A stretch of DNA of 37,686 nucleotides from Burkholderiaceae bacterium (GCA_035536515.1 DATLOA010000194.1:1-37686); one strand, 5' to 3'. Positions 1 to 16,258 are shown, counted from the first letter of the stretch. The notes: generated from the letters alone by a model not told the origin. Program-made: numbers and translations.

Positions 1-1673
1 TGCGGCAGATGAGGCTCCATCGCCTTCTTGAACAAACCTTTCGCAACGCCATCCGGTGCCTTGACGCTCTCGGGCAACGAGAACGCCCACTCGAGCAGTC
101 GATGATCAAGCAGCGGCGAGCGCGACTCGAGACTTACCGCCATGCTCGCGGTGTCGACCTTCACCATCAAGTCGTCGGGCAGATACACATGCGTGTCCGC
201 CCAATTGGCGCCCGACACGAAATCTGGCGCTTCATCAAAGTAACGGTCCAAAAGATCAAGGGCAGAGCTTTGCAGGAACGGGGTCATCGCCGGCCCGTAT
301 GCAGCACTTTTCTGCTCGTCAGAGAAAGACACAATCGAGAACGCGTAGCGTTGACTTGACTTGCGTGTGCGCTCGGTCAGACGTTGCGCAAGCGAAGTGA
401 GGCGCGCCCCGAACCGCCCTTGCTGAACTCCGCGCGGCAATGAGCGCAAGCCAGCCGCGGCAAGCGCCGCGAGAGGGGGCGGCACGTGATCTAACTCGGC
501 GAGCTTTCGCATCGAGTCGTAGCGCGGGTAGCCGATGAACGCTTCGTCACCCCCATCTCCGTTGAGCGCAACGGTAACGTGCTGGCGCGCCATCTCCGAG
601 ACGTAGTACGTCGGGATCATCGACGCGTCTGAAAACGGCTCGCTGTAGTGCCAGATTAATTTCGGAAGAATATCGGCCGCGTTTGGCTCGAGTATTAACT
701 CGTGATGATCGGTGCCGTAACGCTGCGCCACCATGCGGGCGTACTTCGTCTCGTCGTATTCCGCGTGCCGGGAGCCGATCGAAAATGTCTTGACCGGTTC
801 ACCCGATAGTTGGGCCATCATCGCGACCACCGCGGAGGAATCAACACCCCCTGAAAGAAACGCGCCCAACGGCACATCAGAAATCATTCGCAGCTTGACC
901 GATTCCTTCAGCAACTCGACCAGCTCGTGCTGCTTTTCTTGCGCGTCGAAAGCAGATGCCGCGCGGCTGCTCGGAAGCGGCAAACTCCAATAGCGCTCCG
1001 CGGGACCGATCCGCCAGCCGTTCACCTCTCGCTGCGCGATGAGCTTGTGTGCCGCTGACAGCTTGTTTACAGACTCGAAGATAGTGCGCGGTGCGGGGAT
1101 GTACTGATACGTCAGATACTGATGAATCGCCGCGTAGTCGAGCTTGCAATCGAGGCCTGGCCACGTGACAAGCGCTTTCAACTCCGAGCCAAAAACCAGC
1201 GAATCGCCGATGCGGGCCCAATACAGAGGCTTCTTTCCGAGACGGTCACGCGCCAACAGCAAGCGTTGCAACATCGGATCCCAAAGCGCAAACGCGAACA
1301 TCCCGCGCAGGCGATCGATAACGGCGTCCCCCCAAACGCTATAGCCCTCCAAGATCACTTCTGTGTCGCTATGGCTGCGAAATTGCGTGCCGCGAGCTTC
1401 GAGCTCGGCTCGAATCTCCTGAAAGTTATAGATCTCGCCGTTGAACACGATCCAGCAGCGGGCATCTACGGTGCTCATCGGCTGGTGACCCGCAGGTGAA
1501 ATGTCGATGATCGACAGCCGGGCATGGCCCAGTCCGCACGTTCCGTCGGTCCATGCGCCGCGGTCGTCGGGCCCGCGATGCTTGATCACATCGACCATTT
1601 GATTGAGCCGCCCGATCGCCGTGTCGCGATCGATTCGCCCGTCAAGCCTTACGAATCCAGCGATGCCGCACAT
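1..1673 (-). CDS. asnB: asparagine synthase (glutamine-hydrolysing), AsnB family; partial, the C-terminus runs off the left edge
   Basis: It is absent from the ORF track because there is no stop codon in the window. Hand translation of the minus strand from the ATG at 1673-1671 gives MCGIAGFVRLDGRIDRDTAIGRLNQMVDVIKHRGPDD (Ntn Cys2 and HRGPD motif). In-frame hand translation gives the PP-loop SGGVDS at 837-854 and PDDLMVKVDTASMAVSLESR at 121-179. Confidence 0.9.
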   Translation of the reverse strand, partial: MCGIAGFVRLDGRIDRDTAIGRLNQMVDVIKHRGPDDRGAWTDGTCGLGHARLSIIDISPAGHQPMSTVDARCWIVFNGEIYNFQEIRAELEARGTQFRSHSDTEVILEGYSVWGDAVIDRLRGMFAFALWDPMLQRLLLARDRLGKKPLYWARIGDSLVFGSELKALVTWPGLDCKLDYAAIHQYLTYQYIPAPRTIFESVNKLSAAHKLIAQREVNGWRIGPAERYWSLPLPSSRAASAFDAQEKQHELVELLKESVKLRMISDVPLGAFLSGGVDSSAVVAMMAQLSGEPVKTFSIGSRHAEYDETKYARMVAQRYGTDHHELILEPNAADILPKLIWHYSEPFSDASMIPTYYVSEMARQHVTVALNGDGGDEAFIGYPRYDSMRKLAELDHVPPPLAALAAAGLRSLPRGVQQGRFGARLTSLAQRLTERTRKSSQRYAFSIVSFSDEQKSAAYGPAMTPFLQSSALDLLDRYFDEAPDFVSGANWADTHVYLPDDLMVKVDTASMAVSLESRSPLLDHRLLEWAFSLPESVKAPDGVAKGLFKKAMEPHLP

Positions 1674-1726
1674 GGCGTCAAACGACCTCTATAACAATGT
1701 GACAATTGTTTCGAAAGCGGCGCGCA

Positions 1727-3787
1727 TCATACGTTCCTGGCGGGAGCAGTAATCAATTCCGCAGTTGCCACCCGAAATCGGCTCGCTGCCAGCGCGACTA
1801 CGCACGCACGGTCGAGCCAAACGGCGATGAAAACAATTGCCAACGGCACGATCGGGTCAACGTAGCGCGGTATTACCGTTGTTGCCAATGCAGTCAACAC
1901 TATCGCACCGTGCATCATGGCGCCCACATATCCCGCGACTGCCAACCACAGCCATCGACGTCCGGCAACAAGGCTCGCCAGCAGAGTAATCAATGACGCG
2001 ATTGCGACCAAAGGTCCGAACAGTGGTACCTGCACGAGAACCCTGAGTGTCATATCGATTGTTGAAGAGTCGCGCTGCAGCGTTCGATCCGGGGCGCTGA
2101 TTAGTTGCCCGTATGCAAATTCGGGGACGTGGACCGTTTCCGCGAGTTTCCGCGCGAGCGTGTTGTGACTCTGCTCGAACGCCTGGAAGTGTTCGTTCAG
2201 CCACTTTTCCGTGTTGGCCGCATAGGGAAAGTGAATCCACCAAGCGGTAAAAACGTGGTCGGCGACGTGGGATGCATAAGCGAGAGGATGATGGGTGATG
2301 CTGGACGTCGCGAACTCACGATAGTACGGAATCATTTCCTCGCGGTCGCGAAAACCGAAGTTTCTCAGCGCGCTCTGAGTTGCCGCCGATGCGCGGTTGA
2401 AATTGTTCATCGAATACAAAGCACGCTCGACCGGCGAGGCTTGTGCTGCCTGGTCGCGCCGGTAGTCTTCGAGAGCAGCGGCAACCGCGGTGGCGGCCGC
2501 ATGCGGCTCGGCCAGATCCTCCACGCGATACAAATGGCCCACGTGCGGAAAGAGAGCTAGCCAGGCAATCGACTGGGCGGGTGTCCCGCGATAAGCATTG
2601 CTTGCGAGGGTTACAACTGCGAATCCGGCAACCATCGGGACTATGGTGGCGAGAGCAATCATTCGGCGGTGGCGGAAACGGTACACAAACAGCAACAGCG
2701 TGCAAACGGGAACGAAAAATCCGGCGGGCCGTATTAGGATCACGAGCAGGGCGGTCACGCCGACCATCGCCAGCCTGAGTCGTGTTGCCCGCTCGAGCAC
2801 CAGAATGACGGCGCTGAGATGCAAAAGCAGGCTCGACGCGTAGATGACTTCGGTGAGTGCGAACATCGAGTATTTGGTCACGGTGCCGAGCAACAGGAGC
2901 GCGATTGCGCACAAAGCGGCGACGGCGCGGAATTTGAGCGCAATGTGCAACGCCTGATAGAGCACCAACACGCTTGCGATCCACACGCCGATCTGTGCCG
3001 CTGGAAGCCCAGTGAGGCCGTTTCCCGGAAGCGCGACTAGCTTCGCGAAAGCCCAGTAGCCGAGCGGCACGATTGCATTAGCTGTCAAATAAGTGTGCGA
3101 ATCAGGATTCAGCAGCGGCACATTGGGCATCGCGAACCCAAAGAACCAGAGTACGTAGGCGGCGGCTCCTACTACTGCAACGGTCCAGATCGGACTGTGC
3201 GCGGCTTGGTACACCAGTGTGCGCAAGGCGTTTCTCGTTGCACCAAGCGCACGCGGATGAGTAAAGCCTACGACCGTCAAGAACACTGCAAGAGATGCAA
3301 ACCAAAGCAAGGCGATCACGGCGAGTCCGAGTGACCCAAACTCAAGCCGATATTGCACCCCATAGGAGCGCCCGTTGTTGCGCGGATCAGAATCGTCGCT
3401 GGCTGAGAAAATCAGCGTATCGCTTGAGCGTGCATCCGTGGCGGTTTGCCAGTGGGAGAATCTTCCGCGGCCCTGCTGATGGATATCCTGATGGACCGAA
3501 TGCGCTGCGCCGATTGCGACGCCGTCCTCGAACAGACGAAGACTCGATTGCCTGGGCCGTTCGTTGGTATCGCTCTGCCGGCCGAACACAAGACTGGGCA
3601 CGACTGAAGGTCCGAACTCAAAAGCGTATGCGCTCCCGCCTTGGCTGAGAATGCCAGCCGGGATTACTTCCGCCGTTTCTTCCCACAGTCCGGAACGCAA
3701 CGCGGCGGCGTAACCAGCGACCAGCGTAGCGGTCAGCAATACGAGCAGGCAACGCCTGATTGCTTTCGGTTCATTGATGCCTGTCAT
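1727..3787 (-). CDS. large polytopic inner-membrane protein, candidate GT-C-type (ArnT/PMT_2-like) glycosyltransferase; function unknown
   Basis: 686-aa ORF with roughly 11-12 hydrophobic helices by eye. A ~120-aa non-hydrophobic domain follows TM1 (aa ~33-150, contains FSASDDSDPRNNGRSY). NPDSHTY (nt 3089-3109) sits in the loop after the third helix and resembles the PDExRY loop motif of ArnT-type GT-C enzymes. A ~165-aa soluble insert (aa ~420-585) precedes three C-terminal helices. The gene itself is secure; the family call rests on motif recall only. Confidence 0.65.
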   Translation of the reverse strand: MTGINEPKAIRRCLLVLLTATLVAGYAAALRSGLWEETAEVIPAGILSQGGSAYAFEFGPSVVPSLVFGRQSDTNERPRQSSLRLFEDGVAIGAAHSVHQDIHQQGRGRFSHWQTATDARSSDTLIFSASDDSDPRNNGRSYGVQYRLEFGSLGLAVIALLWFASLAVFLTVVGFTHPRALGATRNALRTLVYQAAHSPIWTVAVVGAAAYVLWFFGFAMPNVPLLNPDSHTYLTANAIVPLGYWAFAKLVALPGNGLTGLPAAQIGVWIASVLVLYQALHIALKFRAVAALCAIALLLLGTVTKYSMFALTEVIYASSLLLHLSAVILVLERATRLRLAMVGVTALLVILIRPAGFFVPVCTLLLFVYRFRHRRMIALATIVPMVAGFAVVTLASNAYRGTPAQSIAWLALFPHVGHLYRVEDLAEPHAAATAVAAALEDYRRDQAAQASPVERALYSMNNFNRASAATQSALRNFGFRDREEMIPYYREFATSSITHHPLAYASHVADHVFTAWWIHFPYAANTEKWLNEHFQAFEQSHNTLARKLAETVHVPEFAYGQLISAPDRTLQRDSSTIDMTLRVLVQVPLFGPLVAIASLITLLASLVAGRRWLWLAVAGYVGAMMHGAIVLTALATTVIPRYVDPIVPLAIVFIAVWLDRACVVALAASRFRVATAELITAPARNV

Positions 3788-3838
3788 CCTTCGAAAGTGC
3801 GTAATGCGAGGACGACTAAATGCGTGTGCGTCGTTGGG

Positions 3839-4639
3839 TCATCGCTCGCCGCACACGGTCCAGCTATAACCGTGTCGATGGTGCAGTCGAATGTTCGTAA
3901 AGCCGGCGACCGCCAGCAACTCGCGCGCCTCGTTTTCGAGGTAATACTTGGCGTACGCCGGGTTCAACTGGTCGTAGATGATCAGATGGCGTTTTCGTCG
4001 ACTCATCCGCGCAAAAACTTCAGTCACATACTGCCGCATGGGCAACGGTGCGAACCGGCACGCGGCAAGGTACAGATCGGCAGCGAAGGTCAGCGCCCAG
4101 CAGATTGCGCTCAGAACTCCGTGGGGCAGGCGGCGCGTCAGCGCGCGAAACGGCTGCACAAACGCCAGGTAATTCTCGTTGCCTTCGCGACCGTATAACC
4201 AGATCAGAAGCAGTCCGCCCTGGCGCAGCGCGCGACGTGCGGCGGCTACTACCGTGGATGGATTTTCGATGTGGTGCAGGACGCCGATCGACAAGATCAA
4301 GTCGAGATCGTGCTCATTGGCAATCGATTGCCCTCGGCTGTGGACGAGCTTTACTTTATCGGCAACCGCGGAAAATCGGGTGACTAGGACATCGAACGCG
4401 TTCGATGGCTCGATCGCGACCACGTGCGCTGCACCGGCCTCAAGCAGCATGTTTACTACGCGTCCCGAGCCCGAGCCGATTTCCGCGACCCGCATGCCCT
4501 TGATTCGCTCGACGTCCAGCAGCGGCCCAAAAATGTCGGCCAACAGATCGATCGATCCGTAGTAGCCCGAGTTGTCGGTGTAGCGCGTCCATTGCTCGCC
4601 AAAGTCAGCGACTGTTCTGGCGTCCAGGTTTGCCTTCAC
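3839..4639 (-). CDS. class I SAM-dependent methyltransferase
   Basis: Motif I is VAEIGSGSGRVVNMLLEAG and the post-motif is LILSIGVLHHIENP...LRQGGLLLIW. The GTG start at 4639 overlaps the upstream stop as GTGA (4636-4639). Confidence 0.85.
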   Translation of the reverse strand: MKANLDARTVADFGEQWTRYTDNSGYYGSIDLLADIFGPLLDVERIKGMRVAEIGSGSGRVVNMLLEAGAAHVVAIEPSNAFDVLVTRFSAVADKVKLVHSRGQSIANEHDLDLILSIGVLHHIENPSTVVAAARRALRQGGLLLIWLYGREGNENYLAFVQPFRALTRRLPHGVLSAICWALTFAADLYLAACRFAPLPMRQYVTEVFARMSRRKRHLIIYDQLNPAYAKYYLENEARELLAVAGFTNIRLHHRHGYSWTVCGER

Positions 4640-5556
4640 AGTCCGTCGGCGGGGGGAGACGATGTAATGCGATAAATCGGCCGGTCATAACGCGACAGTC
4701 GCATCTGACTGATCTGGTCTGCTATCAGTCCAAAAAAGCCCGAGAGGATGCCGCCCAGCGTCAGCAGCACGGCGCCGGCCGGAACGCCGCGACCGGTCAA
4801 AATCGCCCAGCCGAGGCCGTAGAGGATGCCGGCAAAAAAGAGCATCACACCTGCCCTGAGAAAAATGCGCATCGGTGCAAACAGCATGAAAATGCGCATC
4901 AAGAGCATGAATGCATGAAAGCCGTCGGCGACCTTGACTTTACTCACGCCGATGCGCGGGTTCAACTCGATCGGGTAAAAGTCGATCGGGTAGCCGCGTT
5001 CTAGCATGATGACCGTGCTTGTAATGCTGGCGCTGAAGCCGTTGGGAAGCAGATCGACGTACCGGGAGATCACGTCACGGCGAAACACCCGCAGGCCGCA
5101 ATTGATGTCCTTGCCAGCACTAAACTTCAGGGATCGCGCTGCCAACCGTATAAAAAACTTCCCCAGTGTGCGTACCGGTGACGGGCCGGAGAATCGGCGT
5201 TGCGCGACGACTGCCGCCAGCCCGCGCGAGCTGACTATCAATGCCATTGCTGCGAGGTCGCTCACACGATGCTCGTTATCCGCGTCGAACCAGGCGACGT
5301 ATTCGCGTGTCGCGATACTGATACCGGTCTTAAGTGCGGCGCCATAGCCACGATTGAACGGATGCTGTGCGACAATGATTTTGGCGAACCCAAGCGCGAT
5401 CTGAGCGGTTCGATCATCCGACCCGTCGTCGATCACGATAACTTCCGCCTCGGGAGCGTCGCGCGTCAACGCGTCGAGCGTCGCCGCGATGCCTGCCTCT
5501 TCGTTGAATGCAGGGATGACGATACTCACGCGACTGAAAACGCTGTTCGACATCAT
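4636..5556 (-). CDS. family 2 glycosyltransferase, GtrB/ArnC/DPM1-like polyprenyl-phosphate sugar synthase type
   Basis: VSIVIPAFNEEAGI and VIVIDDGSDDRT, plus the DXD in WFDADNEH. Two C-terminal hydrophobic helices (aa ~225-290) match membrane-anchored polyprenyl-P glycosyltransferases. Length is 306 aa. Confidence 0.85.
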   Translation of the reverse strand: MMSNSVFSRVSIVIPAFNEEAGIAATLDALTRDAPEAEVIVIDDGSDDRTAQIALGFAKIIVAQHPFNRGYGAALKTGISIATREYVAWFDADNEHRVSDLAAMALIVSSRGLAAVVAQRRFSGPSPVRTLGKFFIRLAARSLKFSAGKDINCGLRVFRRDVISRYVDLLPNGFSASITSTVIMLERGYPIDFYPIELNPRIGVSKVKVADGFHAFMLLMRIFMLFAPMRIFLRAGVMLFFAGILYGLGWAILTGRGVPAGAVLLTLGGILSGFFGLIADQISQMRLSRYDRPIYRITSSPPADGL

Positions 5557-5577
5557 GCTGCGTCCTGATGGGGCGCC

Positions 5578-7464
5578 CTAGCGCACGCCGGTTGCGTCGC
5601 GCCACACAGCGAACGTCAACAAAGTCCAAAGAGCATAGCCGTGATCGGCGCGCAGTTCGACATGCTCCCGCCATAAGCGGGCGACGCCGTTAGGCGACAA
5701 GTAGGGAGCGAGCGCATCCCCGTCGCGCACCAGCATTCTTTCTGCCAGCGGCCGCAATGCTCCGCGCAGATGGGCGTCCACCGGCACCTTGAACCCCCGC
5801 TTTTCAGCGCGACTAATGGCGGGTGGAACACCCCGGCGTGCGAGCGCCGCGCGCAGGATTTTCTTGTCGGGTCCGCGCAGCGGCGTGAGCAAAGATGAGT
5901 CGAGCTTGCCCGCAAGTTCCATCATTCGGCGATCCAGAAACGGCACGCGCACCTCTACACCGTGTGCCATGCTCATGGCGTCACTCTTTACGAGAAGATC
6001 GCCCGGCAGGTAGTAAGTCTGATCGCCGAGTAGGCAGCGATCGACGAGCGTACCGGACTGACCCATCGTAGCCGCGTACTCATCGAGTGGATCTGCCAAC
6101 TGACCGAGCGCAAGCAGCGGCCCTGCGTACACCGTCTCCATCTGTTCCGGAAACAGATAGCGCCGCCATTGCGGATGGTGCATCCCGCGCGCAAATGCCA
6201 TTCCGGAAAACAGTCGTGCCATCTTCTCTGAAGCCGGGATTCGTCCGTGCCCGTGGCGGCACAATCGACGAAGCTGTTGCGCACCCAAGGCGGAAAGTCG
6301 CTTCGGTATCAGGGGCGAAGCCAGTGCAGCAATGCGGCTGGCGCGATAAGTTTCATAGCCGCCGAAGAACTCGTCGGCGCCGTCCCCCGTCAGTACGACA
6401 GGCATCCTACGGCGCGCAGCCTTGCATACGGCACTGAATGCCAAGCCGCTCGAGTCGGCGCAATTGCCGTCATAGTGATAAACCATCTTGATAAATCGCT
6501 GCTCGAGTTCGCTTGCGTCTTCCACGTCGACGCTTACGTGCTCGAGCCCAAACTTTGAGGCGATCGCCGTGGCTTGCGCGCCCTCGTCATATTCGTGCGT
6601 TGCGAATCGTGCCGTGAACGCCGGAACTGACTTGCCGGATAGCGTCGAAGCTGCCAGACCGCTATCGATTCCGCCGCTCAGCAACAGACCCACCGGAACG
6701 TCGCTGACAAGAATGTCGGACATCACTGCGTTCCACACGCTGTCAAAGGCGGCAAGCGCCGTCGGCATGTCGCGTATTTCCCCCGTGCGTGTCGGACGCC
6801 AATATCGGCTTACGCGGATTCCCTGGGCGTCGGCCACCAGGATGGATCCCGGCGGTACCGGCTGCACATCGCGCAACAGGGTTCGTTCCGGGCCGGGGTA
6901 GCCTTGCGCGAGATATCGATGCAGGCTCTCCACGCTTATTTGGCGTGAAGTCTCGGGCGCGGCCAGCAATCCCTTGATCTCGCTCGCGAAGCGCAGCGAG
7001 GACCCATTCCACGAGTAGTAAAGCGGCTTGATGCCGATGGGGTCGCGCACGAGGATCATGCGCTGCCGCCGACGGTCCCACAGACCAATGGCGAACATGC
7101 CTTCGAAGCGTGCAAAGGCGCCCGTATCCCATGCGGTGTACGCCGGTGCGATGACCTCGGTATCGGACGTCGTCAGAAAACGCAGTGGCTGGATTGCTGC
7201 CAACTCGCTGCGCAAAGCCACGTCGTTATAAATTTCTCCGTTGTAGGTAACCACGGTCGTGTCGGCGGCATCGTGCATCGGCTGATTCGCTTGCTCGCTA
7301 AGGTCGCGAATTGCCAGCCTTCGATGTCCCAAACCTACGTTGCCATCGATCCACGTACCCCATCCATCCGGCCCTCGGTGCGCTAGGATGTCGGTCATTG
7401 CAGTCAGCACGCGCGTGTCGACTGGCTCACCACCGAAATTCACGATCCCTGCGATACCGCACAT
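5578..7464 (-). CDS. asnB: asparagine synthase (glutamine-hydrolysing), AsnB family (second paralog)
   Basis: MCGIAGIVNFGG (Cys2 nucleophile), HRGPDG, the PP-loop LLLSGGIDSGLAAS, and LLVKSDAMSMAHGVEVRVPFLD. Length is 628 aa. Confidence 0.92.
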   Translation of the reverse strand: MCGIAGIVNFGGEPVDTRVLTAMTDILAHRGPDGWGTWIDGNVGLGHRRLAIRDLSEQANQPMHDAADTTVVTYNGEIYNDVALRSELAAIQPLRFLTTSDTEVIAPAYTAWDTGAFARFEGMFAIGLWDRRRQRMILVRDPIGIKPLYYSWNGSSLRFASEIKGLLAAPETSRQISVESLHRYLAQGYPGPERTLLRDVQPVPPGSILVADAQGIRVSRYWRPTRTGEIRDMPTALAAFDSVWNAVMSDILVSDVPVGLLLSGGIDSGLAASTLSGKSVPAFTARFATHEYDEGAQATAIASKFGLEHVSVDVEDASELEQRFIKMVYHYDGNCADSSGLAFSAVCKAARRRMPVVLTGDGADEFFGGYETYRASRIAALASPLIPKRLSALGAQQLRRLCRHGHGRIPASEKMARLFSGMAFARGMHHPQWRRYLFPEQMETVYAGPLLALGQLADPLDEYAATMGQSGTLVDRCLLGDQTYYLPGDLLVKSDAMSMAHGVEVRVPFLDRRMMELAGKLDSSLLTPLRGPDKKILRAALARRGVPPAISRAEKRGFKVPVDAHLRGALRPLAERMLVRDGDALAPYLSPNGVARLWREHVELRADHGYALWTLLTFAVWRDATGVR

Positions 7465-7509
7465 ATCATCTGAAACGGCGCTCGAGGCTCCGAGTCTGTT
7501 CCGAACGCA

Positions 7510-8178
7510 TTATTTGTGGGCGACGTAAAGCGTATTCAGCCCGTACAAGAACCTCGATTCGCGAATGTCCGTGAACCCGGCATCGCGCAGCAGCGACAGA
7601 ACTTCTGAACGATCAAGACCCGGCTCCTCATGCGCATCGATTTCGCGATGCTTGTCCTCCGAATACCACCAGATTTTATGGCCAATGGCACCAATCCAGC
7701 GCCCGATCATGGTCAGGATGACGCGACCGCCGGGACACAGGACGCGTCTCGCCTCGTGCAGCGCTTCGTTCCGCTCGGGGATGTGATTCAAGCAGGCAAC
7801 GAACGACACTGTATCGAAGCTCGCGTCGGCAAACGGTAGATGCGCCGATGATTCGATCAGCATGCAATCTGATCCCCAATCTACAACGTCGGCGCCGATG
7901 CTGCCGGCTTCGTCCCCTTTAACTCCCATGCTGCAATACAACTTGATCAGGACGTTGTCGCCCGCGCCGATATCGAGCACACGCCCGCGCAACTCAGGCA
8001 GTACGGCGGCAAGTCGCTCTCCTCGCAACGATGTTGTCCCCAGGCGTTCACAGACATGATCGGGCAGGATCGCCATTCGCACGGGCGCGAGCAGCAAGTC
8101 GTACGCGTGGCGCCAGATGGGCTTGTGCGCCGAAACGGCCCACGAAGGTGGCAAGGAGGCAGTGTGAGTATGTCTCAA
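7510..8178 (-). CDS. class I SAM-dependent methyltransferase (Methyltransf_11-like)
   Basis: Motif I is RVLDIGAGDNVL, followed by FDTVSFVACLNHIPE...LCPGGRVILTM. The TTG start at 8178 overlaps the upstream stop as TTGA (8175-8178). The start is uncertain because an internal Met (MAILPDH) is also possible. Confidence 0.8.
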   Translation of the reverse strand: MRHTHTASLPPSWAVSAHKPIWRHAYDLLLAPVRMAILPDHVCERLGTTSLRGERLAAVLPELRGRVLDIGAGDNVLIKLYCSMGVKGDEAGSIGADVVDWGSDCMLIESSAHLPFADASFDTVSFVACLNHIPERNEALHEARRVLCPGGRVILTMIGRWIGAIGHKIWWYSEDKHREIDAHEEPGLDRSEVLSLLRDAGFTDIRESRFLYGLNTLYVAHK

Positions 8179-9251
8179 CGGCGGCGCCTGTTCGCAGATG
8201 GCGGTTCTTCGCGGTCAGCAGCTTCGATCTGCGGGGCGCCATTATCGATGCGCGCTTGCAAAGCTTTGGCTAAGTGCTCCGTGTAGCGCACACGACCCCA
8301 TCGGTTTAGATGAGTCTGGCTGGAAAAATATGCGGCGGGCATTTGAAGCGGCATATCCAGGATGTCAACAGGTGACAGTCCGAGCGTTTGTGCGATGTTT
8401 CCACGCACGGTATTAAGTTCTGCGTACTCTCGCGCACCAAGGACGCCTGCGGGAACCGGAGTGACGAGCAGCAGAACTCGTGCGTGAGCAATGCGCATGC
8501 GGGAAGCCAGTACGATTAGCGCGTCCATGAACGCTTCGTTTGGCGTAATGTTGGAAATCGCGCCGAACCCCGGCGGACTGGTTTGCGCTTCTAACAACTG
8601 CGCGCTGCCGGCGCGCAGGCCGTAGCCCGGGTCGAGCATGCTCCCGCGTGATGTTCTGAGCTCTGTTTCCACCGTGCCGGTTCCCCCGTAGTACAGCGCG
8701 AAACTGCCGGGCATCGGGGCGTAGACGACAGTTCTGTCGAGGTATTCACGGGCAAACGCCAACGCGTTCTGAATCGTTAAGGGGACCCGATTGTTCTGCT
8801 CGTTCGAACGGGCGACGTATGCCACCCACGATTCCCAGCTGGCATCGCGAACGAATTGAATCGGATGAATAGCGAGAATGATCCAGGGCGGGCGAGGCTG
8901 ATCGGTCGCCATCTCGTGGATCATTGCTGCATAACCCGCCGGCCCGATGTACCCAATCGTGCAATAGTTTTCGGCTTCGATCTTCAGTTCGTCGCGTAAT
9001 AGCGACGCCACGATTCCCATCAAGCAAGAGCTGTCACCAAGCAAGGCGAGGTCGAATGGTTTTCGTTCGCGGAGCCGGCCGAGCTGCGTGTCAACGATCA
9101 AGTGATCAACCGAAGGATGCTTTCGATGCTGAGCGTCGTCCTGCGCACCGGCAAATACCACCAACAGCACCCCCAGTAACACAGCGACGACTGCCGCAAG
9201 TGGCGCCAACTCTCGCAGCACGAGGCCCATCGGTGGAGAAGAAGCGCTCAT
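8175..9251 (-). CDS. membrane-anchored hypothetical protein, possible SGNH/DltD/AlgJ-like acyl-transfer partner of the adjacent MBOAT
   Basis: There is one N-terminal hydrophobic helix (LAPLAAVVAVLLGVLLVVFAG). LALLGDSSCLMG (aa 69-80) resembles SGNH block I. SSQTHLNRWG (aa 310-319) resembles the D/T-H-W block of AlgJ/AlgX/DltD-type proteins. It lies 5 nt downstream of the MBOAT gene. The functional call is by motif and context only. Confidence 0.5.
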   Translation of the reverse strand: MSASSPPMGLVLRELAPLAAVVAVLLGVLLVVFAGAQDDAQHRKHPSVDHLIVDTQLGRLRERKPFDLALLGDSSCLMGIVASLLRDELKIEAENYCTIGYIGPAGYAAMIHEMATDQPRPPWIILAIHPIQFVRDASWESWVAYVARSNEQNNRVPLTIQNALAFAREYLDRTVVYAPMPGSFALYYGGTGTVETELRTSRGSMLDPGYGLRAGSAQLLEAQTSPPGFGAISNITPNEAFMDALIVLASRMRIAHARVLLLVTPVPAGVLGAREYAELNTVRGNIAQTLGLSPVDILDMPLQMPAAYFSSQTHLNRWGRVRYTEHLAKALQARIDNGAPQIEAADREEPPSANRRRR

Positions 9252-9256
9252 GTGCC

Positions 9257-10654
9257 TCAGAACTGAAAATAAATGAACGTTGGGCGGTGCCGCTCGAGAA
9301 ACACCAGCGTCAGCGTAATCAACGATCCAAGGCTTGCGACTCTAGTCCAAGAAGACCGGGCGCTCATGGTGGTCCGTTCAACCAAGTTGATTTGAACGTA
9401 TTCGAAAAGCGCAAGCGCAAACATCAGCATCAGAGTTGCGGTCAGCAGGCTCAAGTGCAGCGGCGCCCATTCCCAGTTACGAAGTGCTGTAATCAACGCT
9501 TCCATCAGACCGGGACCGGTCGCGCGGAACAGAAACCATCCGATGAAAACGATCGACATTGTGCCAAGCCAGCCTGCGAAACGGCCGATGCGAGTTTGCG
9601 GCTGGTTCGGGATGCCGAGCAGCCTCCACGTCGCGAGAGCGACTCCGAGAAACAAGCCCCATAAAACAAAGTTCCACGCTGCCCCGTGCCAAAGTCCGCC
9701 CAAAATCATTGTCAGCATCAAAGCCGTCACCGTCCTTGATGCGCCATATCGATTTCCGCCGAGAGGGATGTAAACATAGTCGCGCAGCCACCGGCTCAGA
9801 CTGATGTGCCAGCGGCGCCAAAAGTCGCTGGGCGAGACCGCGCGATACGGAAAACGAAAGTTCCAGATCAGTTTGAATCCAAGCAAGCCCGCGCATCCCT
9901 TGGCAATCAGGCTGTAGCCCAAAAAATCAGCGTATATCTGCACACCGAACAGGACGGTGCCCAGTACCACCGACCAGGCGTACGGCTGCGCGGGCACGAA
10001 CAGGGAGTCGACGATGGGGCCCGCGGTATCGGCAATGACGATCTTCACCGCATAACCAAGCACCACTAAACCGATTGCATCCCGCACCGCTCGTGCGTCA
10101 ACGCTGCGCGGTCGCTTGAACTGCGATAAAAGGTGCTCGGCCCGCTCGATTGGCCCGGCGATCAGTTGCGGGAAGAAAAAGCTAAACGCGAAAAACGTCA
10201 CGATCTGGCGTTCCGCCTGATATTCCCTGCGCCACACGTCGACCACATACGCGATCAATTGAAACGTATGGAATGAAATGGCAAGCGGCAACACGATATC
10301 GAGGTAGGTCCACCGCGCTTGCAGTCCGATTGCACCGAGGACAATCGCGAGCGAGTTCCCGAAAAAATTCACGTACTTGAAATACGCGAGACAGGCCAAC
10401 TGAGCAGCGACGCAAAGTGCCAGCACTGCGTTGCGCCGGCTACTTGACGTCGCAGCCTCAATGCTGAGCGCCGCCAGATAAGACACCAGCGATAGCCCGA
10501 GCATCAGCGAAAGAAACCGCCAATCCCACCACGCGTAGAAGATGCAGCTTGCCGCGAGTAGAAGCAAATTTTGGCTTCTGACTTGGCGCAGGAAGTGATA
10601 CAGGACGAATACGACGGCGAATAAAATTATGAAGGAAAGGGAAACGAACGACAT
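9257..10654 (-). CDS. MBOAT family O-acyltransferase (AlgI/DltB/PatA-like)
   Basis: 465-aa polytopic protein with the hallmark FWRRWHISLSRWLRDYVYIPLGGNR motif, which contains the catalytic His. Confidence 0.92.
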   Translation of the reverse strand: MSFVSLSFIILFAVVFVLYHFLRQVRSQNLLLLAASCIFYAWWDWRFLSLMLGLSLVSYLAALSIEAATSSSRRNAVLALCVAAQLACLAYFKYVNFFGNSLAIVLGAIGLQARWTYLDIVLPLAISFHTFQLIAYVVDVWRREYQAERQIVTFFAFSFFFPQLIAGPIERAEHLLSQFKRPRSVDARAVRDAIGLVVLGYAVKIVIADTAGPIVDSLFVPAQPYAWSVVLGTVLFGVQIYADFLGYSLIAKGCAGLLGFKLIWNFRFPYRAVSPSDFWRRWHISLSRWLRDYVYIPLGGNRYGASRTVTALMLTMILGGLWHGAAWNFVLWGLFLGVALATWRLLGIPNQPQTRIGRFAGWLGTMSIVFIGWFLFRATGPGLMEALITALRNWEWAPLHLSLLTATLMLMFALALFEYVQINLVERTTMSARSSWTRVASLGSLITLTLVFLERHRPTFIYFQF

Positions 10655-10663
10655 GTTCGGTCG

Positions 10664-11419
10664 TCAACGGGTACCTGAGCCGCCTCGCTTTTCATAAACT
10701 GCCATCAACCGAAAACCGCACACCGGCCCCAGCACGCGCTCGATGCGGTCCTCGAAGTGCAACAGCGAGCGTGCGACACCGGGTGTTATCAGCGACCAGG
10801 ACTTAAACCCCCCGGAAAGCGGATAAGCGAGCAGGCTGAGCCAATTCAGGCGAGTCAGGTCGAGCGTGGGCTCGCGGCAATTCAGAGCTGCAGCGTAGCT
10901 GCCGGTTAGAAGGGTTGGAATCGCCTGATTGCCCACATAAGGATTCTTATTTGGATTGGGACGGCCCTCCAGCAGCGGGTTGACGCTGCTATCCACCGGC
11001 TCTTCATGCATTGCTCGGTAGACCAATCCGCTCAGCGGCGTAATTCCGGGTTCAACAAATACGAGGCGACCGCCAGGTTGCAGCACGCGCGCGGCGTCTC
11101 TCAGAAACTTGATTGGATATTCGATGTGATGCAGCACATCAAGCATCACGATGTTCACCACGCTGCCTGAGCGGAGGGGTAGCGCTTGCGCGTCTGCCAC
11201 AAAATCCAGCCAGGGCTCGTACACGATGTCGAACGACAGCACGTCGGGTGCGAACTGCTTGAAGTTGCCGGAGCCGCCGCCGACTTCAATCGTCAAGCCG
11301 GGTTGGCATGCGGCAGCGATGCGCCGGTATAAATGTCCGTAGACCTCTCGCAGCACCGGCTTCGATGCCCACACCTCTCTATGAGACAGCTGCCGCTCGG
11401 CGGCGCTCGTTGCGGCCAT
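10664..11419 (-). CDS. class I SAM-dependent methyltransferase (Methyltransf_11-like)
   Basis: Motif I is LTIEVGGGSGNF, followed by IVMLDVLHHIEYP...LQPGGRLVFVEP. I prefer the ATG at 11419 (MAATSAAERQ...), which sits 1 nt from the upstream stop at 11421-11423. The ORF-track start at 11449 is a TTG that would overlap the upstream gene by 29 nt. Confidence 0.82.
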   Translation of the reverse strand: MAATSAAERQLSHREVWASKPVLREVYGHLYRRIAAACQPGLTIEVGGGSGNFKQFAPDVLSFDIVYEPWLDFVADAQALPLRSGSVVNIVMLDVLHHIEYPIKFLRDAARVLQPGGRLVFVEPGITPLSGLVYRAMHEEPVDSSVNPLLEGRPNPNKNPYVGNQAIPTLLTGSYAAALNCREPTLDLTRLNWLSLLAYPLSGGFKSWSLITPGVARSLLHFEDRIERVLGPVCGFRLMAVYEKRGGSGTR

Positions 11420-11420
11420 G

Positions 11421-12701
11421 TCAGATGAACTTAAGCCGGCGTGCGGCAAAACCGAGCATTGCGATCAACAACGCCCCGTGTCTCCAGCGTGAGATGTTGG
11501 TCTCTCCGTACGTCCGTTCGCGGTAGGTAATCGGAATCTCGACGATGTGCAACGCCATCCGCGCTGCGCCGAACAGCAGGTCAAAATCGCCGAAGGGATC
11601 GAATTCGCCGAAGTAGGCGCGGTGTTGAGCCAGGCGCAGATAGTTGTCGCGTGTGATGACCTTGGTGCCGCACAGCGTGTCCTTGAAGCGCTGCCCGAGG
11701 ACGAAGGAGAAGGCAACCGCGAAGAACTTGTTGGCGACAAGGTTCAGAAAACGCATCGCGCGTTTTTCCATCGGATACACCAGTCGGCTGCCGTTGATGA
11801 ACTCTCCCTTTCCGCTTGTGATGGCGGCGTAGAACTTCGGCAAGTCCTCAGGTGGCACCGTTATATCGGCGTCCAGGATCATCAGGATTTCGTTGCGCGC
11901 CATCGCGAATCCCTTGCGTACAGCGTCTCCCTTGCCTTTTCCATCCTGTTGAGCGATGACAATGTTCTTTCCGACGAACCGCGATTGCGCATCGCGAATC
12001 TTTGCCCAAGTGTCGTCCTTGGAACCGCCTTCGATAAATATCAGTTCGTCATCGGGCCCCATCTTTGGCAAACGGTTGACGATTGCGTCAATGTTTCCCG
12101 CTTCATTGCGCGCGGGAACCACGACCGACACCGACGCCACTTTTGAGTCCGCCCGAGTGGCCGCCATCACGGGCCTTGCCACCAGCACATTAACGAAGCA
12201 CAGGCTCGAAATGACCGGCAATGGTGCCAGGTATCGATTAGCGATGGCGCTGAGCAGGGGGATGTTGACGGGCAGCAGCACTTTTGGATCGCGTCGAATC
12301 ACTTCCAGATCCGCGAGTCGCATGAAATTGGCCATGTCGCTATGCGATAGCCAATTCCACTCAAGGGTCTTGCTACGAAGCCCAAGCCGCGTAGCCAGTC
12401 CCAGTATCGGGCGCCACAACGAGCTGTAATACACAACGATCACACGGGCGCGGTCCGTCAAACTTGGGCGCAGCCGAGTCAAATACGCTTGGATATCGCG
12501 CTCGTAGTGAAGGGTGCCGTTGAGCAGCACAAAATCGGCGTCGAGCGGCGTTGCAGTGGCCTCATCGATCGACATTGTCCGGCAGTACGTCAGATACGAA
12601 TCGAGCTCGTGGCTTGGCGGGTCCACACTGAGCAGCGAATCTCCGGGGCGAGCAAACAGGCCGATGTAGCGGGCCAGAAGGCGGTAAAAATAACCCTTCA
12701 C
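11421..12701 (-). CDS. family 2 glycosyltransferase with an N-terminal degenerate methyltransferase-like domain
   Basis: The C-terminal ~235 aa carry VSVVVPARNEAGNI, ELIFIEGGSKDDT and the DXD in ILDADITV. The N-terminal ~190 aa have a methyltransferase-like layout (ADFVLLNGTLHYERDIQAYLTRLRPSLTDRARVIVV). Where the GxGxG SAM loop should be, the sequence is SLLSVDPPSHE. The GTG start overlaps the upstream stop as GTGA (12698-12701). Confidence 0.8.
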   Translation of the reverse strand: MKGYFYRLLARYIGLFARPGDSLLSVDPPSHELDSYLTYCRTMSIDEATATPLDADFVLLNGTLHYERDIQAYLTRLRPSLTDRARVIVVYYSSLWRPILGLATRLGLRSKTLEWNWLSHSDMANFMRLADLEVIRRDPKVLLPVNIPLLSAIANRYLAPLPVISSLCFVNVLVARPVMAATRADSKVASVSVVVPARNEAGNIDAIVNRLPKMGPDDELIFIEGGSKDDTWAKIRDAQSRFVGKNIVIAQQDGKGKGDAVRKGFAMARNEILMILDADITVPPEDLPKFYAAITSGKGEFINGSRLVYPMEKRAMRFLNLVANKFFAVAFSFVLGQRFKDTLCGTKVITRDNYLRLAQHRAYFGEFDPFGDFDLLFGAARMALHIVEIPITYRERTYGETNISRWRHGALLIAMLGFAARRLKFI

Positions 12702-13687
12702 ATGCCTTCTCCGCGCATTCGCAGTAGTCGCCGGCTATGCGAGGTGAACGCGAGCGCCACGACCGCGCTCGTGCAGAGCCCAATGAAGAAGACGCCGTGG
12801 ATTGCAACCGCCAGCACCAGTCCTTCCGATGCTGGTTTGCCGAGCAGGATGAATGCTGACACGATCGCCGCATGAAAAGTCCCGATTCCTGACGGCGCGG
12901 CCGGAATCGCAACCCCCAGCGCGCCGGCAAACATCAGCACCATCACATCGGCAACGCCCAGATTCATTCCGACCAGCTGTGCGATTGCCAAGTAGGCCAA
13001 GACATACAAGACAAGCCAGATAAATGCAGTTTGCATCAGCAGAATGGCGATGCGGCCGGGCGTGGTCGACTGGCGTAGGTGCATCAAAGGCCGCAGCAAA
13101 TGCCGGTACAGGCGCGGCGAAAGACGAACGGCGCGCGACGAAAACCGAATCGCCTTGATCATCCAAACGGAACGAGCGGTCAGCAAGGCGGCCACCGCGA
13201 CACTGAGAATGACGAGGGCAATCGCAACCACGTTGATTCCACTGTCGCCAGTCGCCAGCAGCGTCGCCGTCGATGCGAGCCCAAAGGCCGCCACCGCGAT
13301 CAGGTCAAAGACTTTTTCAACCGCGAGGGCCGATACGCCAGAGTGAATTGACGGTGCGCCTGCGCCGCGCGCGGACAGCACGACGCGTAGCGCGTCTCCG
13401 CCGCGGAGCGGGAAAACCTGATTACCGCCGAGACCGAGGGCAGCGACCACCAGCGAACGCGGCATCGTCAGTGCCTCGATCAGCAAAGTGCGCCAGCGCC
13501 ATGCAAAGGCGATTACGATCACGCTCACGACCAGCACGATCACCGGCAAGCGATCCCATTGCGCGCGCGAAGCCAGCCCACGAAACGCCTGTAGATCGGC
13601 GAATGAAAACACGACCACCAGTGCCACGAGACTGATGGTCAGCGGGAGCCACGTGCGCAAGATGGCTTTCGAAACCTTCGACGGCAC
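12698..13687 (-). CDS. flippase-like (UPF0104 / lysyl-PG synthase TM-region family) integral membrane protein
   Basis: 329 aa with about 8 hydrophobic helices. The FPLRGGDALRVV motif is what I recall for the MprF-flippase-like family. The GTG start lies 21 nt downstream of the rfbC stop. Confidence 0.7.
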   Translation of the reverse strand: MPSKVSKAILRTWLPLTISLVALVVVFSFADLQAFRGLASRAQWDRLPVIVLVVSVIVIAFAWRWRTLLIEALTMPRSLVVAALGLGGNQVFPLRGGDALRVVLSARGAGAPSIHSGVSALAVEKVFDLIAVAAFGLASTATLLATGDSGINVVAIALVILSVAVAALLTARSVWMIKAIRFSSRAVRLSPRLYRHLLRPLMHLRQSTTPGRIAILLMQTAFIWLVLYVLAYLAIAQLVGMNLGVADVMVLMFAGALGVAIPAAPSGIGTFHAAIVSAFILLGKPASEGLVLAVAIHGVFFIGLCTSAVVALAFTSHSRRLLRMRGEGM

Positions 13688-13708
13688 TTGTGTTACCTCG
13701 TTGCGCGG

Positions 13709-14251
13709 CTAGCGGTACAGCTCCGCGCAAGCCACAAGTGGTGCACTCGCGTCTTTGCCGGACAGAACAGCGGCGTCGGGCAGCGGCCACTTGATTGCAA
13801 GCTGCGGATCGTTCCAGCGCACTACACGGTCAAAATCTGCGTCGTACAACTCGCTGGCCTTGTAGCTGACGTCAGCTTCATCGCTTACAACTTGAAAACC
13901 GTGCCCGAAGCCGGGCGGAACCCACAGCATTTGGAAATTGGTTTCGGTGAGGTCGACGCTGACCCACTGAGCGAACGTCGGTGAACTGTGGCGTAGATCG
14001 ACCGCAACATCGAAGATTGCGCCGCGTGTGCATCGAACAAGTTTTCCTTGTGGCCGTTTCAATTGATAATGCAGGCCGCGCACAACATTGCGTACGGAGC
14101 GCGAATGATTGTCCTGGCGGAAATGCACGTCCAGTCCGGCGAGCGCAAACTTTTTCTCATTCCATGATTCCAGAAAGAAGCCACGAGCGTCGCTTCGTAC
14201 CTGGGGTTTGATTAGTAGGACACCCGGTAGCGCGGTTGGGGTGATCTCCAT
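13709..14251 (-). CDS. rfbC: dTDP-4-dehydrorhamnose 3,5-epimerase
   Basis: RmlC cupin motifs are present: VRGLHYQ, KLVRCTRGAIFDVAVDLR and LWVPPGFGHGF. I moved the start from 14359 to the ATG at 14251 (MEITPTALPGVLLIKPQV), which gives the usual ~180 aa. Confidence 0.9.
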   Translation of the reverse strand: MEITPTALPGVLLIKPQVRSDARGFFLESWNEKKFALAGLDVHFRQDNHSRSVRNVVRGLHYQLKRPQGKLVRCTRGAIFDVAVDLRHSSPTFAQWVSVDLTETNFQMLWVPPGFGHGFQVVSDEADVSYKASELYDADFDRVVRWNDPQLAIKWPLPDAAVLSGKDASAPLVACAELYR

Positions 14252-14339
14252 CTTTTGCTTGTTTGCGAGCTGATCTGCTTCGCGTGAGAGAATACCCGAG
14301 CCGACGCTCAGCTTGCCGTGTCGGTCGGCTCGATCGCGA
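14252..14339. promoter_or_regulatory. divergent control region between rfbC (modification operon) and fcl-rfbA-rfbD
   Basis: This 88-bp gap is the only non-coding space available to drive both divergent operons. It contains a perfect 9-bp inverted repeat, CGAGCCGAC (14297-14305) and GTCGGCTCG (14324-14332). I could not identify clear -35/-10 boxes. Confidence 0.4.
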
Positions 14340-15329: not shown

Positions 15330-15337
15330 CTGTCAGC

Positions 15338-16243
15338 GTGGCGAGAAAAGGCATCATTCTGGCGGGCGGATCGGGCACTCGCCTGTATCCGGTGACGCAT
15401 GTTCTGTCGAAGCAATTGCTGCCGGTGTACGACAAGCCGATGATTTATTACCCGCTATGTACGTTGATGCTGGCGGGCATTCGCGACATCCTGATCATCT
15501 CGACACCGGCAGACACGCCCCGCTTTTCCGAGTTGCTCGTTGACGGGTCGCGCTGGGGCTTGAATCTTAGTTACGCGAGCCAGCCGTCGCCCGACGGTCT
15601 GGCGCAGGCGTTTGTCATCGGCAAAGACTTTGTTGGAGGCAGTACGAGTGCCCTGGTGCTTGGCGATAACATTTTTTACGGCCATGACTTGTCGATTGTT
15701 TTACAAAGAGCAAACGCGCAAACGGCGGGCGCGACGGTATTTGCGTACCACGTCAATGACCCGGGACGTTATGGAGTGATCGAGTTCGACGACGCAGGCC
15801 GAGCCATGACGCTTGAGGAAAAGCCGAAACAAGCGCGGTCCAGCTATGCGGTAACGGGACTGTACTTTTACGATCGACGAGCACCCTCGATTGCTGCAGA
15901 ACTAAAGCCTTCAGCACGTGGTGAGCTCGAAATCACCGACCTTAACCGCCAATACCTGCAATGGGGCGAGCTAAGGGCCGAAGTGATGGGCCGCGGCATT
16001 GCCTGGCTTGATACCGGCACCCACGACTCGCTGCTTGAAGCATCCACATTCATTGCGACGATCGAGAAGCGTCAGGGACTCAAGGTGTCGTCTCCGGAAG
16101 AGATCGCTTGGCGGATGGGCTATATCGATCGCGATGCCATGCTTGCGCTTGCGCATGCGATGGGCCAAAGCGAATACGGACACTATCTGGTGCGCATTGC
16201 CGACGAGCGCATCCTGGATGCGGGCACCGGCGCACGCGCCTGA
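15338..16243 (+). CDS. rfbA: glucose-1-phosphate thymidylyltransferase
   Basis: GTG start, then [36 protein letters not shown] and [14 protein letters not shown]. Confidence 0.95.
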
Positions 16244-16258
16244 CGCGCAAACTCTGCA

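Follow-up and report, generated by a model that had tools for sequence, protein, structure and literature searches.

Three-component periplasmic glycosylation, with its logic of synthase, flippase and GT-C glycosyltransferase, occurs inside ATP-binding cassette (ABC) transporter O-antigen loci, as in the PPPRS/MATE/GT136 system of Citrobacter youngae, whose GT-C enzyme (GT136) carries an extra soluble carbohydrate-binding module (Kelly et al., 2024; PMC11127046). We analysed a string of twelve genes at positions 1-14251 of a contig from a Burkholderiaceae bacterium (GCA_035536515.1, DATLOA010000194.1; the complete contig of 37 686 bp is referred to below as the window). Judged from its genes alone, the string follows the same logic as the C. 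youngae system and as GtrA/GtrB/GtrC of Shigella and Salmonella. It is probably the promoter-proximal, decorating part of a hypervariable, Wzm/Wzt-dependent lipopolysaccharide (LPS) O-antigen locus and would hold two lipid-carrier cassettes; judging from gene order in relatives, the left end of the contig most likely cuts the string off just before the genes for the exporter and the polymerising glycosyltransferases. Cassette A comprises the genes for a membrane O-acyltransferase of the MBOAT family, its GDS-motif partner, the methyltransferase MT2, the amidotransferase AsnB1, the glycosyltransferase GT2b, the methyltransferase MT3 and a GT-C protein, with the gene for a second amidotransferase, AsnB2, adjoining. 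Cassette B comprises those for a UPF0104 protein, a fusion of a degenerate methyltransferase-like domain with a GT2 domain (MT::GT2) and the methyltransferase MT1.

Like the C. youngae system, these genes are placed in an ABC-transporter O-antigen locus, here by synteny, and include one for a GT-C protein with an extra soluble domain. Set against Gtr-type systems, the window encodes a GT2 synthase and a GT-C protein with an acidic first-loop residue, and no match to the GtrA, MATE or SMR ArnE/F flippase families was found in it. A UPF0104 protein stands in place of GtrA or MATE, the GT-C protein belongs to a family that has no Pfam model, and its extra domain, unlike that of GT136, is N-terminal and lies between two transmembrane (TM) helices. 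Two AsnB proteins, three methyltransferases and an MBOAT pair are encoded here in addition.

The wxc locus of Xanthomonas campestris, with its region 3 (wxcK-wxcO), is said to have been described by Vorhölter et al. in 2001. Compared by its description only, this region (PMC13133917) resembles the string in being a side-branch module with a GT2 protein (WxcL) and a membrane protein (WxcO) in a hypervariable Wzm/Wzt locus, beside rml and xanA/xanB supply genes; it differs in having a GtrA-like protein (WxcN) and an Fuc3NAc branch, and no UPF0104, AsnB or MBOAT. The same triad of families, with the same predicted flipping role for UPF0104 (arCOG00899), is found in an archaeal neighbourhood of AglD-like GT2, UPF0104 and PMT/STT3-like genes, known by prediction only (Makarova et al., 2015; PMC5898192). 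Unlike the window, that neighbourhood was proposed to serve S-layer N-glycosylation and is without amidotransferase, methyltransferase and MBOAT genes.

The pairing of a GT2 undecaprenyl-phosphate-sugar synthase with a GT-C enzyme is also shared with Arn (ArnC/ArnT/ArnE-F), Lgm, Flm and RgtE with RgtA-D, which act on lipid A or the core. ArnT is a structural neighbour of the GT-C protein, and the Arn pathway likewise tailors the sugar on the lipid carrier (ArnD). It differs from the window, which has no ArnA, ArnB or ArnD and no SMR-type flippase, whose GT-C protein is not GT83 by sequence, and whose context is O-antigen, not lipid A. An Arn-type pathway was rejected on the lack of family matches, GT2b reaching 36 bits against the ArnC cut-off of 529 and the GT-C protein having no PMT_2 or ArnT match of its own. 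The GpgSDF system for glucosaminyl-phosphatidylglycerol in Pseudomonas aeruginosa resembles the string in that a glycosyltransferase is encoded beside a UPF0104 predicted flippase; unlike the window, it has a GT4 enzyme acting on phosphatidylglycerol (GpgS), a deacetylase and no GT-C enzyme (PMC12713373). A system of this type was rejected because UPF0104 alone is shared, the transferases of the window being GT2 and a deacetylase being absent.

An earlier reading of the DNA (hereafter the original prediction) took the string as a candidate for an undescribed periplasmic decoration system. This holds for the exact gene set, whereas the concept has been published (PMC11127046) and the triad predicted for archaea (PMC5898192). 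Novel here are UPF0104 instead of a GtrA, MATE or SMR flippase, the Pfam-less GT-C family and a widespread, unannotated domain at the N-terminus of the GT-C protein; the MBOAT pair and the AsnB and methyltransferase tailoring genes linked to a synthase are also unusual.

The gene string at a contig end

All twelve open reading frames (ORFs) lie on the minus strand, with successive intergenic gaps of 53, 51, -4, 21, 45, -4, 5, 9, 1, -4 and 21 nt. The layout given in the original prediction was thus recovered, with gaps of at most 53 nt, three 4-nt start/stop overlaps of the same sequence and position (GTGA at 4636-4639, TTGA at 8175-8178 and GTGA at 12698-12701) and the 1-nt gap at position 11420, between 11419 and 11421. 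Its domain assignments for the twelve genes were likewise confirmed by Pfam and NCBIfam, except that the 686-residue GT-C protein was assigned by structure prediction and the 358-residue partner of the MBOAT protein by motifs. Gaps of this size leave no room in the string for an unannotated small flippase gene. The sole gap longer than 53 nt, and the only promoter-sized one as had been proposed, is the divergent intergenic region at 14252-14339, between the starts of rmlC (14251) and of an fcl-like gene (14340). This region is the probable promoter region of the string, and a promoter scan matched no sigma-70 consensus in it. Terminator-like sites were not above chance frequency (19 found, 15.4 expected from shuffled sequence).

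On none of the large ORFs of the 37.7-kb window was there a Pfam or NCBIfam match to the Wzx, Wzy, Wzz, Wzm/Wzt, WaaL or WecA/WbaP families, nor does the window contain the chain-building glycosyltransferases and chain terminator of an ABC-type O-antigen. The absences listed in the original prediction therefore stand for the ORFs of the window; as a property of the operon they cannot be claimed, because the contig ends inside gene 12 (AsnB2). WecA-type initiation and WaaL ligation are in any case usually encoded elsewhere than in the ABC-transporter O-antigen locus. For the left end no overlapping contig turned up: an exact look-up with the GT-C gene gave just one 2.9-kb Logan contig, and a wobble-degenerate pattern for the AsnB2 tail, run against JGI metagenomes, hit solely contigs of the lineage of one relative (L002, below).

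Relatives place the string beside wzm and wzt

Every relative that shares the flanks of the window has wzm and wzt in the same string. On a 559-kb ENA contig (L002/L087), the only relative with full synteny, the order from manB to AsnB2 is identical to that of the window at 57-81% amino-acid identity (61% for the GT-C protein), and AsnB2 is followed, after a 192-nt gap, by wzm (ABC-2 permease) and a wzt ATPase gene with a Wzt_C domain, beyond which lie GT4 gene fragments, a methyltransferase gene and a gene for an 871-residue membrane protein. Two independent JGI contigs of the L002 lineage (L083 and L084) repeat the AsnB2-wzm arrangement, and L084 runs on into wzt; the AsnB2 orthologues followed by wzm-wzt in L002 and L084 are 80% identical to that of the window. 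A further relative (L085), with an 84% identical MT::GT2, shares manC, rmlD, rmlA, fcl, rmlC, UPF0104, MT::GT2 and MT1, differs in its middle part (a methyltransferase and a 562-residue membrane protein) and then continues with AsnB, wzm, wzt, a methyltransferase and GT4. In L090 (MT::GT2 82% identical), wzm directly precedes UPF0104, with a wzt gene that includes Wzt_C close by. GT4 genes and methyltransferases stand beside wzm/wzt in L002, L085 and L090.

The ENA contigs of the series ERZ250395xx (L002/L087 and L085) show manC, rmlA, rmlC, AsnB and a large GT4 gene split into fragments, which look like long-read frameshift errors and not pseudogenes.

Cassette B is common in ABC-transporter-type O-antigen loci, those of Pseudoxanthomonas included. 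In Pseudoxanthomonas suwonensis (L086), UPF0104-MT::GT2 lies inside an LPS locus that reads metB-wzm-wzt-GTs...gmd-rmd-etfA-etfB-xanB-xanA; the metB...etfA locus is hypervariable in xanthomonads (PMC2238763).

The original prediction had argued that a string with no exporter does not make up a classical O-antigen assembly line. With the contig ending in gene 12 and wzm/wzt present in relatives that share its flanks, this argument is not supported: most likely it is only the contig end that makes the exporter, and with it a link to O-antigen assembly, appear to be missing. An exporter just to the left in the same operon, which had been named as the finding that would make this an ordinary O-antigen cluster, is what synteny in relatives shows, not this genome itself.

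Cassette A is portable. It is absent from L085 and L090-L092 and recurs in metagenome-assembled genomes, Pseudomonadota and Bradyrhizobium-like (L004, L005 and L088), with GT2b, UPF0104, MT3, two GT-C genes, the MBOAT gene and its partner; L004 and L005 additionally have AsnB1 before GT2b and MT2 after UPF0104. L004 and L088 are readable on one side only, L088 being cut inside its GT2 gene so that the upstream part is unread. The cassettes of L005 and L088 end with a protein of 865-873 residues, and L034 and L089 carry sub-sets of cassette A. The donor-side enzymes of L004 and L005 (GT2b, AsnB1, MT2, MT3 and MBOAT) are 53-59% identical to those of the window, whereas their GT-C proteins are 28-29% identical (28% in L088), a contrast that suggests a conserved donor sugar and divergent acceptors.

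A GT-C fold in the 686-residue protein

The 686-residue protein (1727-3787, minus strand) had no match of its own in Pfam, NCBIfam or PDB sequences. It is rare, with six close homologues among 5.8 billion proteins, and a scan of the GTDB species set returned no close orthologue, the best full-length match being 29% identical. In an exhaustive profile search covering 1.84 billion representatives, 151 proteins reached E<=1e-30; at E<=1e-3 the number rose to 3400, the majority of which match in the N-terminal domain only. When members of the family were scanned singly, their transferase matches were to GT-C families only (PMT_2 three times, best 2e-6; PMT once; GT87 once), and in L009 a homologue of 28% identity passes PMT_2 as well.

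An alignment of 55 homologues from the exhaustive search, most of them spanning most of the protein, showed Asp229 and Tyr244 to be invariant and Y233, G243, Q265, E313, R353, P354, P501 and R641 nearly so. With this alignment AlphaFold (AF2) produced a model with a pLDDT of 93.7 and a pTM of 0.87, which supersedes an earlier one built from five sequences (pLDDT 49). In a Foldseek search of the PDB, the first 20 matches and nearly all of the first 40 were GT-C enzymes, including EmbA/B/C, AglB, ArnT, STT3, Pmt1/2/4, ALG3, ALG9, AftD and PglB, at a best E of 2.4e-5 and probability 1.0, with low global TM-scores (0.22-0.31); WaaL, Wzy and SEDS proteins were not among the matches listed.

The model and hydropathy suggest a topology of TM1, a periplasmic beta-rich domain (residues 35-150), TM2, a cytoplasmic amphipathic helix, TM3 and a loop, PLLNPD229SHTYL. 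Placed behind the first core TM helix, this loop would correspond to the first external one of GT-C enzymes. The catalytic acid of known GT-C enzymes is located in the first external loop, and these enzymes use polyprenyl-linked donors. On its modelled fold the 686-residue protein is a true GT-C glycosyltransferase, and it is predicted to act as a periplasmic transferase that uses a polyprenyl-phosphate sugar, with Asp229 (codon at 3101-3103) as the candidate catalytic residue.

The beta-rich domain (3338-3685, minus strand; residues about 35-150, between TM1 and TM2) is formed by eight strands and one helix in the AF2 model. It is a TM-anchored unit of about 110 residues with the motifs GxGRFSHW and FSxSDNSDPRTNGRxY, and it has no relative in Pfam or among PDB sequences, the latter searched with a 26-sequence profile. 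Elsewhere it is fused to GT-C proteins, to a second polytopic family, to a sulfatase-family protein and to a pectate-lyase-like beta-helix (Pedobacter), or stands alone; further copies are encoded at L003 2580-4691, L010 9926-11332 and L005 11746-12225 and 15551-18172. Several copies per locus are common, and of the 54 loci that measure 15 kb or more, 38 have an AsnB-like gene within 10 kb. The domain is predicted to be periplasmic and is a candidate acceptor-binding or docking module.

The second polytopic family, also Pfam-less, consists of proteins of 764-873 residues, mostly with the same N-terminal domain, which accompany cassette A or follow cassette B (L005 15551-18172, L002 20317-22091, L088 13790-16387, L090 11733-14027 and L091 5275-7578). 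Their RPG-type motif makes them candidates for additional GT-C enzymes. In a relative of 76% identity (L003, 2580-5387), a 703-residue sulfatase-family membrane protein with the domain and an extra methyltransferase are inserted between GT-C and AsnB2, another sign of cassette shuffling at the locus.

Two predicted lipid-carrier synthases and a candidate flippase

GT2b (4636-5556, minus strand) is a 306-residue GT2 protein of the GtrB/ArnC/PpgS/Dpm1 type (Glycos_transf_2, 5.2e-29). Its best NCBIfam matches were AglJ (1.2e-21), PpgS (2.1e-21) and ArnC (3.3e-9, at the bit score given above), and its hydrophobic C-terminus has TM helices, forming a hairpin as in GtrB/ArnC-type synthases. GT2b is accordingly a predicted polyprenyl-phosphate sugar synthase. 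A second such synthase is predicted in MT::GT2 (11421-12701, minus strand), a 426-residue fusion of a degenerate methyltransferase-like domain with a Dpm1/AglJ-type GT2 domain (5.5e-23 at residues 192-321; AglJ 2.1e-31). As the matches of both stay below equivalog cut-offs, the type of synthase can be assigned to them and the substrate cannot. The MT::GT2 family is very large and well conserved, with 8000 matches at E<=1e-20 and identities of 63-67% in Lysobacter, Luteibacter and Pseudoxanthomonas. These matches raised the possibility of a Xanthomonadales source for the window, which was rejected in favour of a probable one in Burkholderiales, as those members of the 90%-identity cluster of its GlyQ that bear an organism name are 'Burkholderiaceae bacterium' metagenome-assembled genomes. 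None of 115 aligned homologues has the glycine-rich GxGxG S-adenosylmethionine (SAM) loop in the N-terminal domain, other blocks of which are strongly conserved, and the earlier label of pseudo-methyltransferase is thus a fair one.

The polytopic protein encoded at 12698-13687 (minus strand) belongs to UPF0104/LPG_synthase_TM (PF03706, 9.7e-32; COG0392, AglD2/YbhN/PplT) and, by analogy with the archaeal proteins predicted to flip lipid-linked sugars (arCOG00899; PMC5898192), is predicted to act as the flippase of the pathway. Its gene is directly upstream of MT::GT2 in L085-L087, L090 and L092, and a divergent copy follows GT2b in L005, L088 and L089. MT1 (10664-11419, minus strand; Methyltransf_11, 2.2e-10), a class-I SAM methyltransferase, completes cassette B; it follows MT::GT2 in L022, L085, L087, L090, L091 and L092, and in relatives cassette B is then followed by a Pfam-less polytopic membrane protein of its own.

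Predicted tailoring enzymes linked to the synthase

AsnB1 (5578-7464, minus strand) is a complete glutamine-dependent amidotransferase of 628 residues (Asn_synthase, 3.5e-72) with Cys2 and an SGGIDS motif, and is encoded beside GT2b in L004, L005 and L034 at 52-54% identity. AsnB2 (1-1673, minus strand; Asn_synthase 2.7e-81, GATase_7) is present to 557 residues, its C-terminus being cut by the contig end; it retains Cys2 and SGGVDS, passes TIGR01536 and reaches 549 bits, under the cut-off, with TIGR03108 (EPS/PEP-CTERM amidotransferase). In O-antigen clusters, paralogues of AsnB (WbpS and WbtH, for example) usually amidate a uronic acid. Two class-I SAM methyltransferases complete the donor side of cassette A: MT2 (7510-8178, minus strand; Methyltransf_11, 1.5e-11), which has counterparts of 53-58% identity in L004, L005 and L034, and MT3 (3839-4639, minus strand; Methyltransf_11 2.9e-13, Methyltransf_9 4.5e-8), found in the same three loci at 55-59% identity, always together with GT2b, AsnB1 and MT2.

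The MBOAT protein (9257-10654, minus strand; Pfam MBOAT 2.2e-27) is of the AlgI/DltB/PatA type and has the catalytic motifs FWRRWHISL and GGLWHGA. DltB is its nearest family (TIGR04091, 6e-42, yet 144 bits against a cut-off of 375), and DltB structures 6bug and 8jem are its nearest PDB sequences (about 2e-25). Directly after its gene in all six neighbourhoods examined (the window, L002, L004, L005, L088 and L089) comes that of a 358-residue membrane-anchored partner (8175-9251, minus strand) with one N-terminal TM helix. The GDSSCL motif of the partner (residues 72-77) is invariant in its family, and H314, D207 and G103 are nearly so. The partner forms about 60 clusters among the 5.8 billion proteins, those named by their source all being called 'hypothetical protein', and matches none of DltD, AlgJ/AlgX and SGNH in Pfam or the PDB. 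Its motifs make it a candidate SGNH-like periplasmic acyltransferase.

An MBOAT protein with its catalytic His motifs, next to an anchored partner with GDS and a His residue that is conserved, recalls DltB/DltD, AlgI/AlgJ/AlgX, PatA/PatB and WssH/WssI. In contrast to these systems, neither DltA nor DltC is encoded here, the partner belongs to none of the partner families searched, and the acceptor would be an LPS glycan; we know of no MBOAT shown to acylate one. D-alanylation of the Dlt type was rejected, with no gene for an AMP-binding or carrier protein in the window and no DltD match for the partner.

In L088, the Bradyrhizobium-like version of cassette A, an OafA-type acyltransferase (Acyl_transf_3 + SGNH; 5991-7922) is encoded beside the MBOAT pair, so that this module has two different periplasmic acylation systems.

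Proposed mechanism and alternatives

In the mechanism that we propose, each GT2 enzyme would act at the cytoplasmic face of the membrane, taking a sugar from its nucleotide donor and loading it onto undecaprenyl phosphate; RmlC, the Fcl-like enzyme and further enzymes of sugar-nucleotide synthesis would feed cassette B. AsnB1 would amidate a carboxyl group, probably that of a uronic acid, and MT2 and MT3 would methylate the sugar, amidation and methylation taking place on either the nucleotide sugar or the lipid-linked sugar. UPF0104 would then flip the lipid-linked sugar to the periplasmic face, where the GT-C enzyme, with Asp229 as catalytic base, would transfer it onto the exported O-polysaccharide or the core, possibly with the periplasmic N-terminal domain helping to bind the acceptor, and where MBOAT and its anchored partner would O-acylate the same glycan. 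The central idea of the original prediction, decoration after export by way of a lipid carrier, gains support from the two Dpm1/GtrB/ArnC-type GT2 proteins, UPF0104, the GT-C fold with its invariant Asp229, the catalytic motifs of MBOAT and the portable core of cassette A in distant metagenome-assembled genomes.

Several points weigh against assigning the string to a Wzm/Wzt-dependent O-antigen locus and against the roles proposed for its products. Since the contig ends, wzm and wzt are not seen in this genome. The window encodes two GT2 synthases yet a single GT-C protein and a single UPF0104 protein, which leaves one of the two cassettes incomplete here. Neither ugd nor another uronic-acid gene is present in the window, and queries with one, four and 44 sequences of the MBOAT partner gave chance-level matches, leaving it without a Pfam or PDB relative. 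The experimental links of UPF0104 are confined to phospholipid systems, namely the flippase domain of MprF, GpgF and Escherichia coli PplT with ClsB (PMC12713373; bioRxiv 10.1101/2022.03.11.483950). Finally, cassette A is not obligatorily tied to an O-antigen exporter: in L005 its neighbours are unrelated genes, with Wzm/Wzt absent from the 10 kb to its left and to its right, and L004 and L088, both of which run into a contig end on one side, showed none in the parts read.

This last observation speaks for a self-contained envelope modification, independent of O-antigen export, in which a tailored undecaprenyl-phosphate sugar would be transferred onto lipid A, the core or some other glycoconjugate of the periplasm in the manner of Arn, Lgm or Rgt. 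The nearness of waaC and waaA, which lie to the right at a distance of 7 kb, the weak likeness of GT2b to ArnC and PpgS and the presence of ArnT among the structural matches point the same way. We nevertheless consider it rather unlikely, given that wzm/wzt share a string with these genes in every relative with the same flanks, that ArnA, ArnB, ArnD, a deacetylase and ArnE/F are all lacking and the GT-C protein falls outside GT83 by sequence, and that O-antigen loci typically have such rml, man and fcl supply genes on their flanks.

The phospholipid roles of UPF0104 are the chief argument for a free membrane glycolipid, in which GT2 and UPF0104 would make and flip a glycosyl-phospholipid, as in GpgSDF/HexSDF, or a lipid of the glycosyl-diacylglycerol type, with AsnB, the methyltransferases and MBOAT tailoring the head group; a fatty-acid desaturase gene beside the module in L089 would also fit. 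This appears improbable, as GpgS is a GT4 enzyme and not a GT2 protein of the Dpm1/GtrB type (PMC12713373, Table 2), a GT-C protein, from a class of polyprenyl-donor enzymes, is conserved together with GT2b, and the module is embedded in O-antigen loci.

A fully cytoplasmic repeat-unit pathway, with the GT2 proteins adding backbone sugars and the 686-residue protein acting as polymerase or ligase or being unrelated, would agree with the adjacent wzm/wzt of relatives and with the frequency of GT2, methyltransferase and AsnB genes in conventional O-antigen clusters, but is likewise improbable in view of the polyprenyl-dependent GT-C enzymes that are the structural neighbours of that protein (with no WaaL, Wzy or SEDS among the matches listed), the C-terminal TM hairpin that GT2b shares with GtrB/ArnC synthases, and UPF0104 and MBOAT, which make no sense in such a pathway.

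If the string does decorate an exported O-antigen, UPF0104 would be a fourth kind of flippase in three-component glycan decoration, a new GT-C family without a Pfam model, perhaps missing from CAZy as well, would be added, and MBOAT/partner pairs would gain a new use on LPS. It would also suggest that sugars can be amidated and methylated within the same cassette that loads the lipid carrier, and the N-terminal domain could be used as a bioinformatic marker of periplasmic glycan-modifying enzymes in thousands of uncultured bacteria. Were only the acceptor wrong, the string would still be an O-antigen serotype-variation cassette, of interest to LPS specialists and not surprising.

A more far-reaching synthesis is put forward tentatively, and we consider it less likely than not. 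Cassette A would be a portable pathway for an amidated, doubly methylated polyprenyl-phosphate sugar, flipped by UPF0104 in what would be its first such role in bacterial glycan decoration and attached by an unrecognised GT-C family; its N-terminal domain might be a shared acceptor-targeting module that marks a large, hidden, multi-phylum and AsnB-linked set of periplasmic glycan-modifying enzymes (GT-C enzymes, the second polytopic family, sulfatase-type transferases and beta-helix enzymes).

Sugar-nucleotide supply genes and other right-hand genes

The first gene of the string encodes RmlC, the dTDP-4-dehydrorhamnose 3,5-epimerase (13709-14251, minus strand; TIGR01221, 235 bits against a cut-off of 155.75), which has the same position in L085, L087 and L090. 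Across the divergent intergenic region lies a supply block (14340-21086; Pfam, NCBIfam) of an fcl-like gene (+), rmlA (+), rmlD (+), manC (-), manB (+) and galE (+), whose order is kept in L085, L087 and L090, where it is syntenic with the cluster. The fcl-like protein reaches 435 bits against the GDP-L-fucose synthase cut-off of 500 and co-occurs with MT::GT2 in L009 and L022. Neither rmlB nor gmd was found in the window or in the syntenic stretches read in L085, L087 and L090; the dTDP-rhamnose and GDP-fucose pathways are therefore both locally incomplete, with rmlA, rmlC, rmlD and the fcl-like gene present.

Further to the right, a gene for a 994-residue Met-zincin (DUF4953/DUF5117/DUF5118; 28807-31791) lies between miaB and phoH in an otherwise conserved miaB-phoH-corC-lnt string. 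An ORF of 220 codons at 25998-26660 (minus strand) has no family match and shares about 500 nt, in antisense, with the well-supported thiD (26142-26978, plus strand); this ORF is unlikely to be a true gene. In a TolC-family ORF of 605 codons (23355-25172, minus strand), the family match begins at residue 109, so that either the annotated start codon lies too far upstream or the protein is extended by about 100 residues at its N-terminus.

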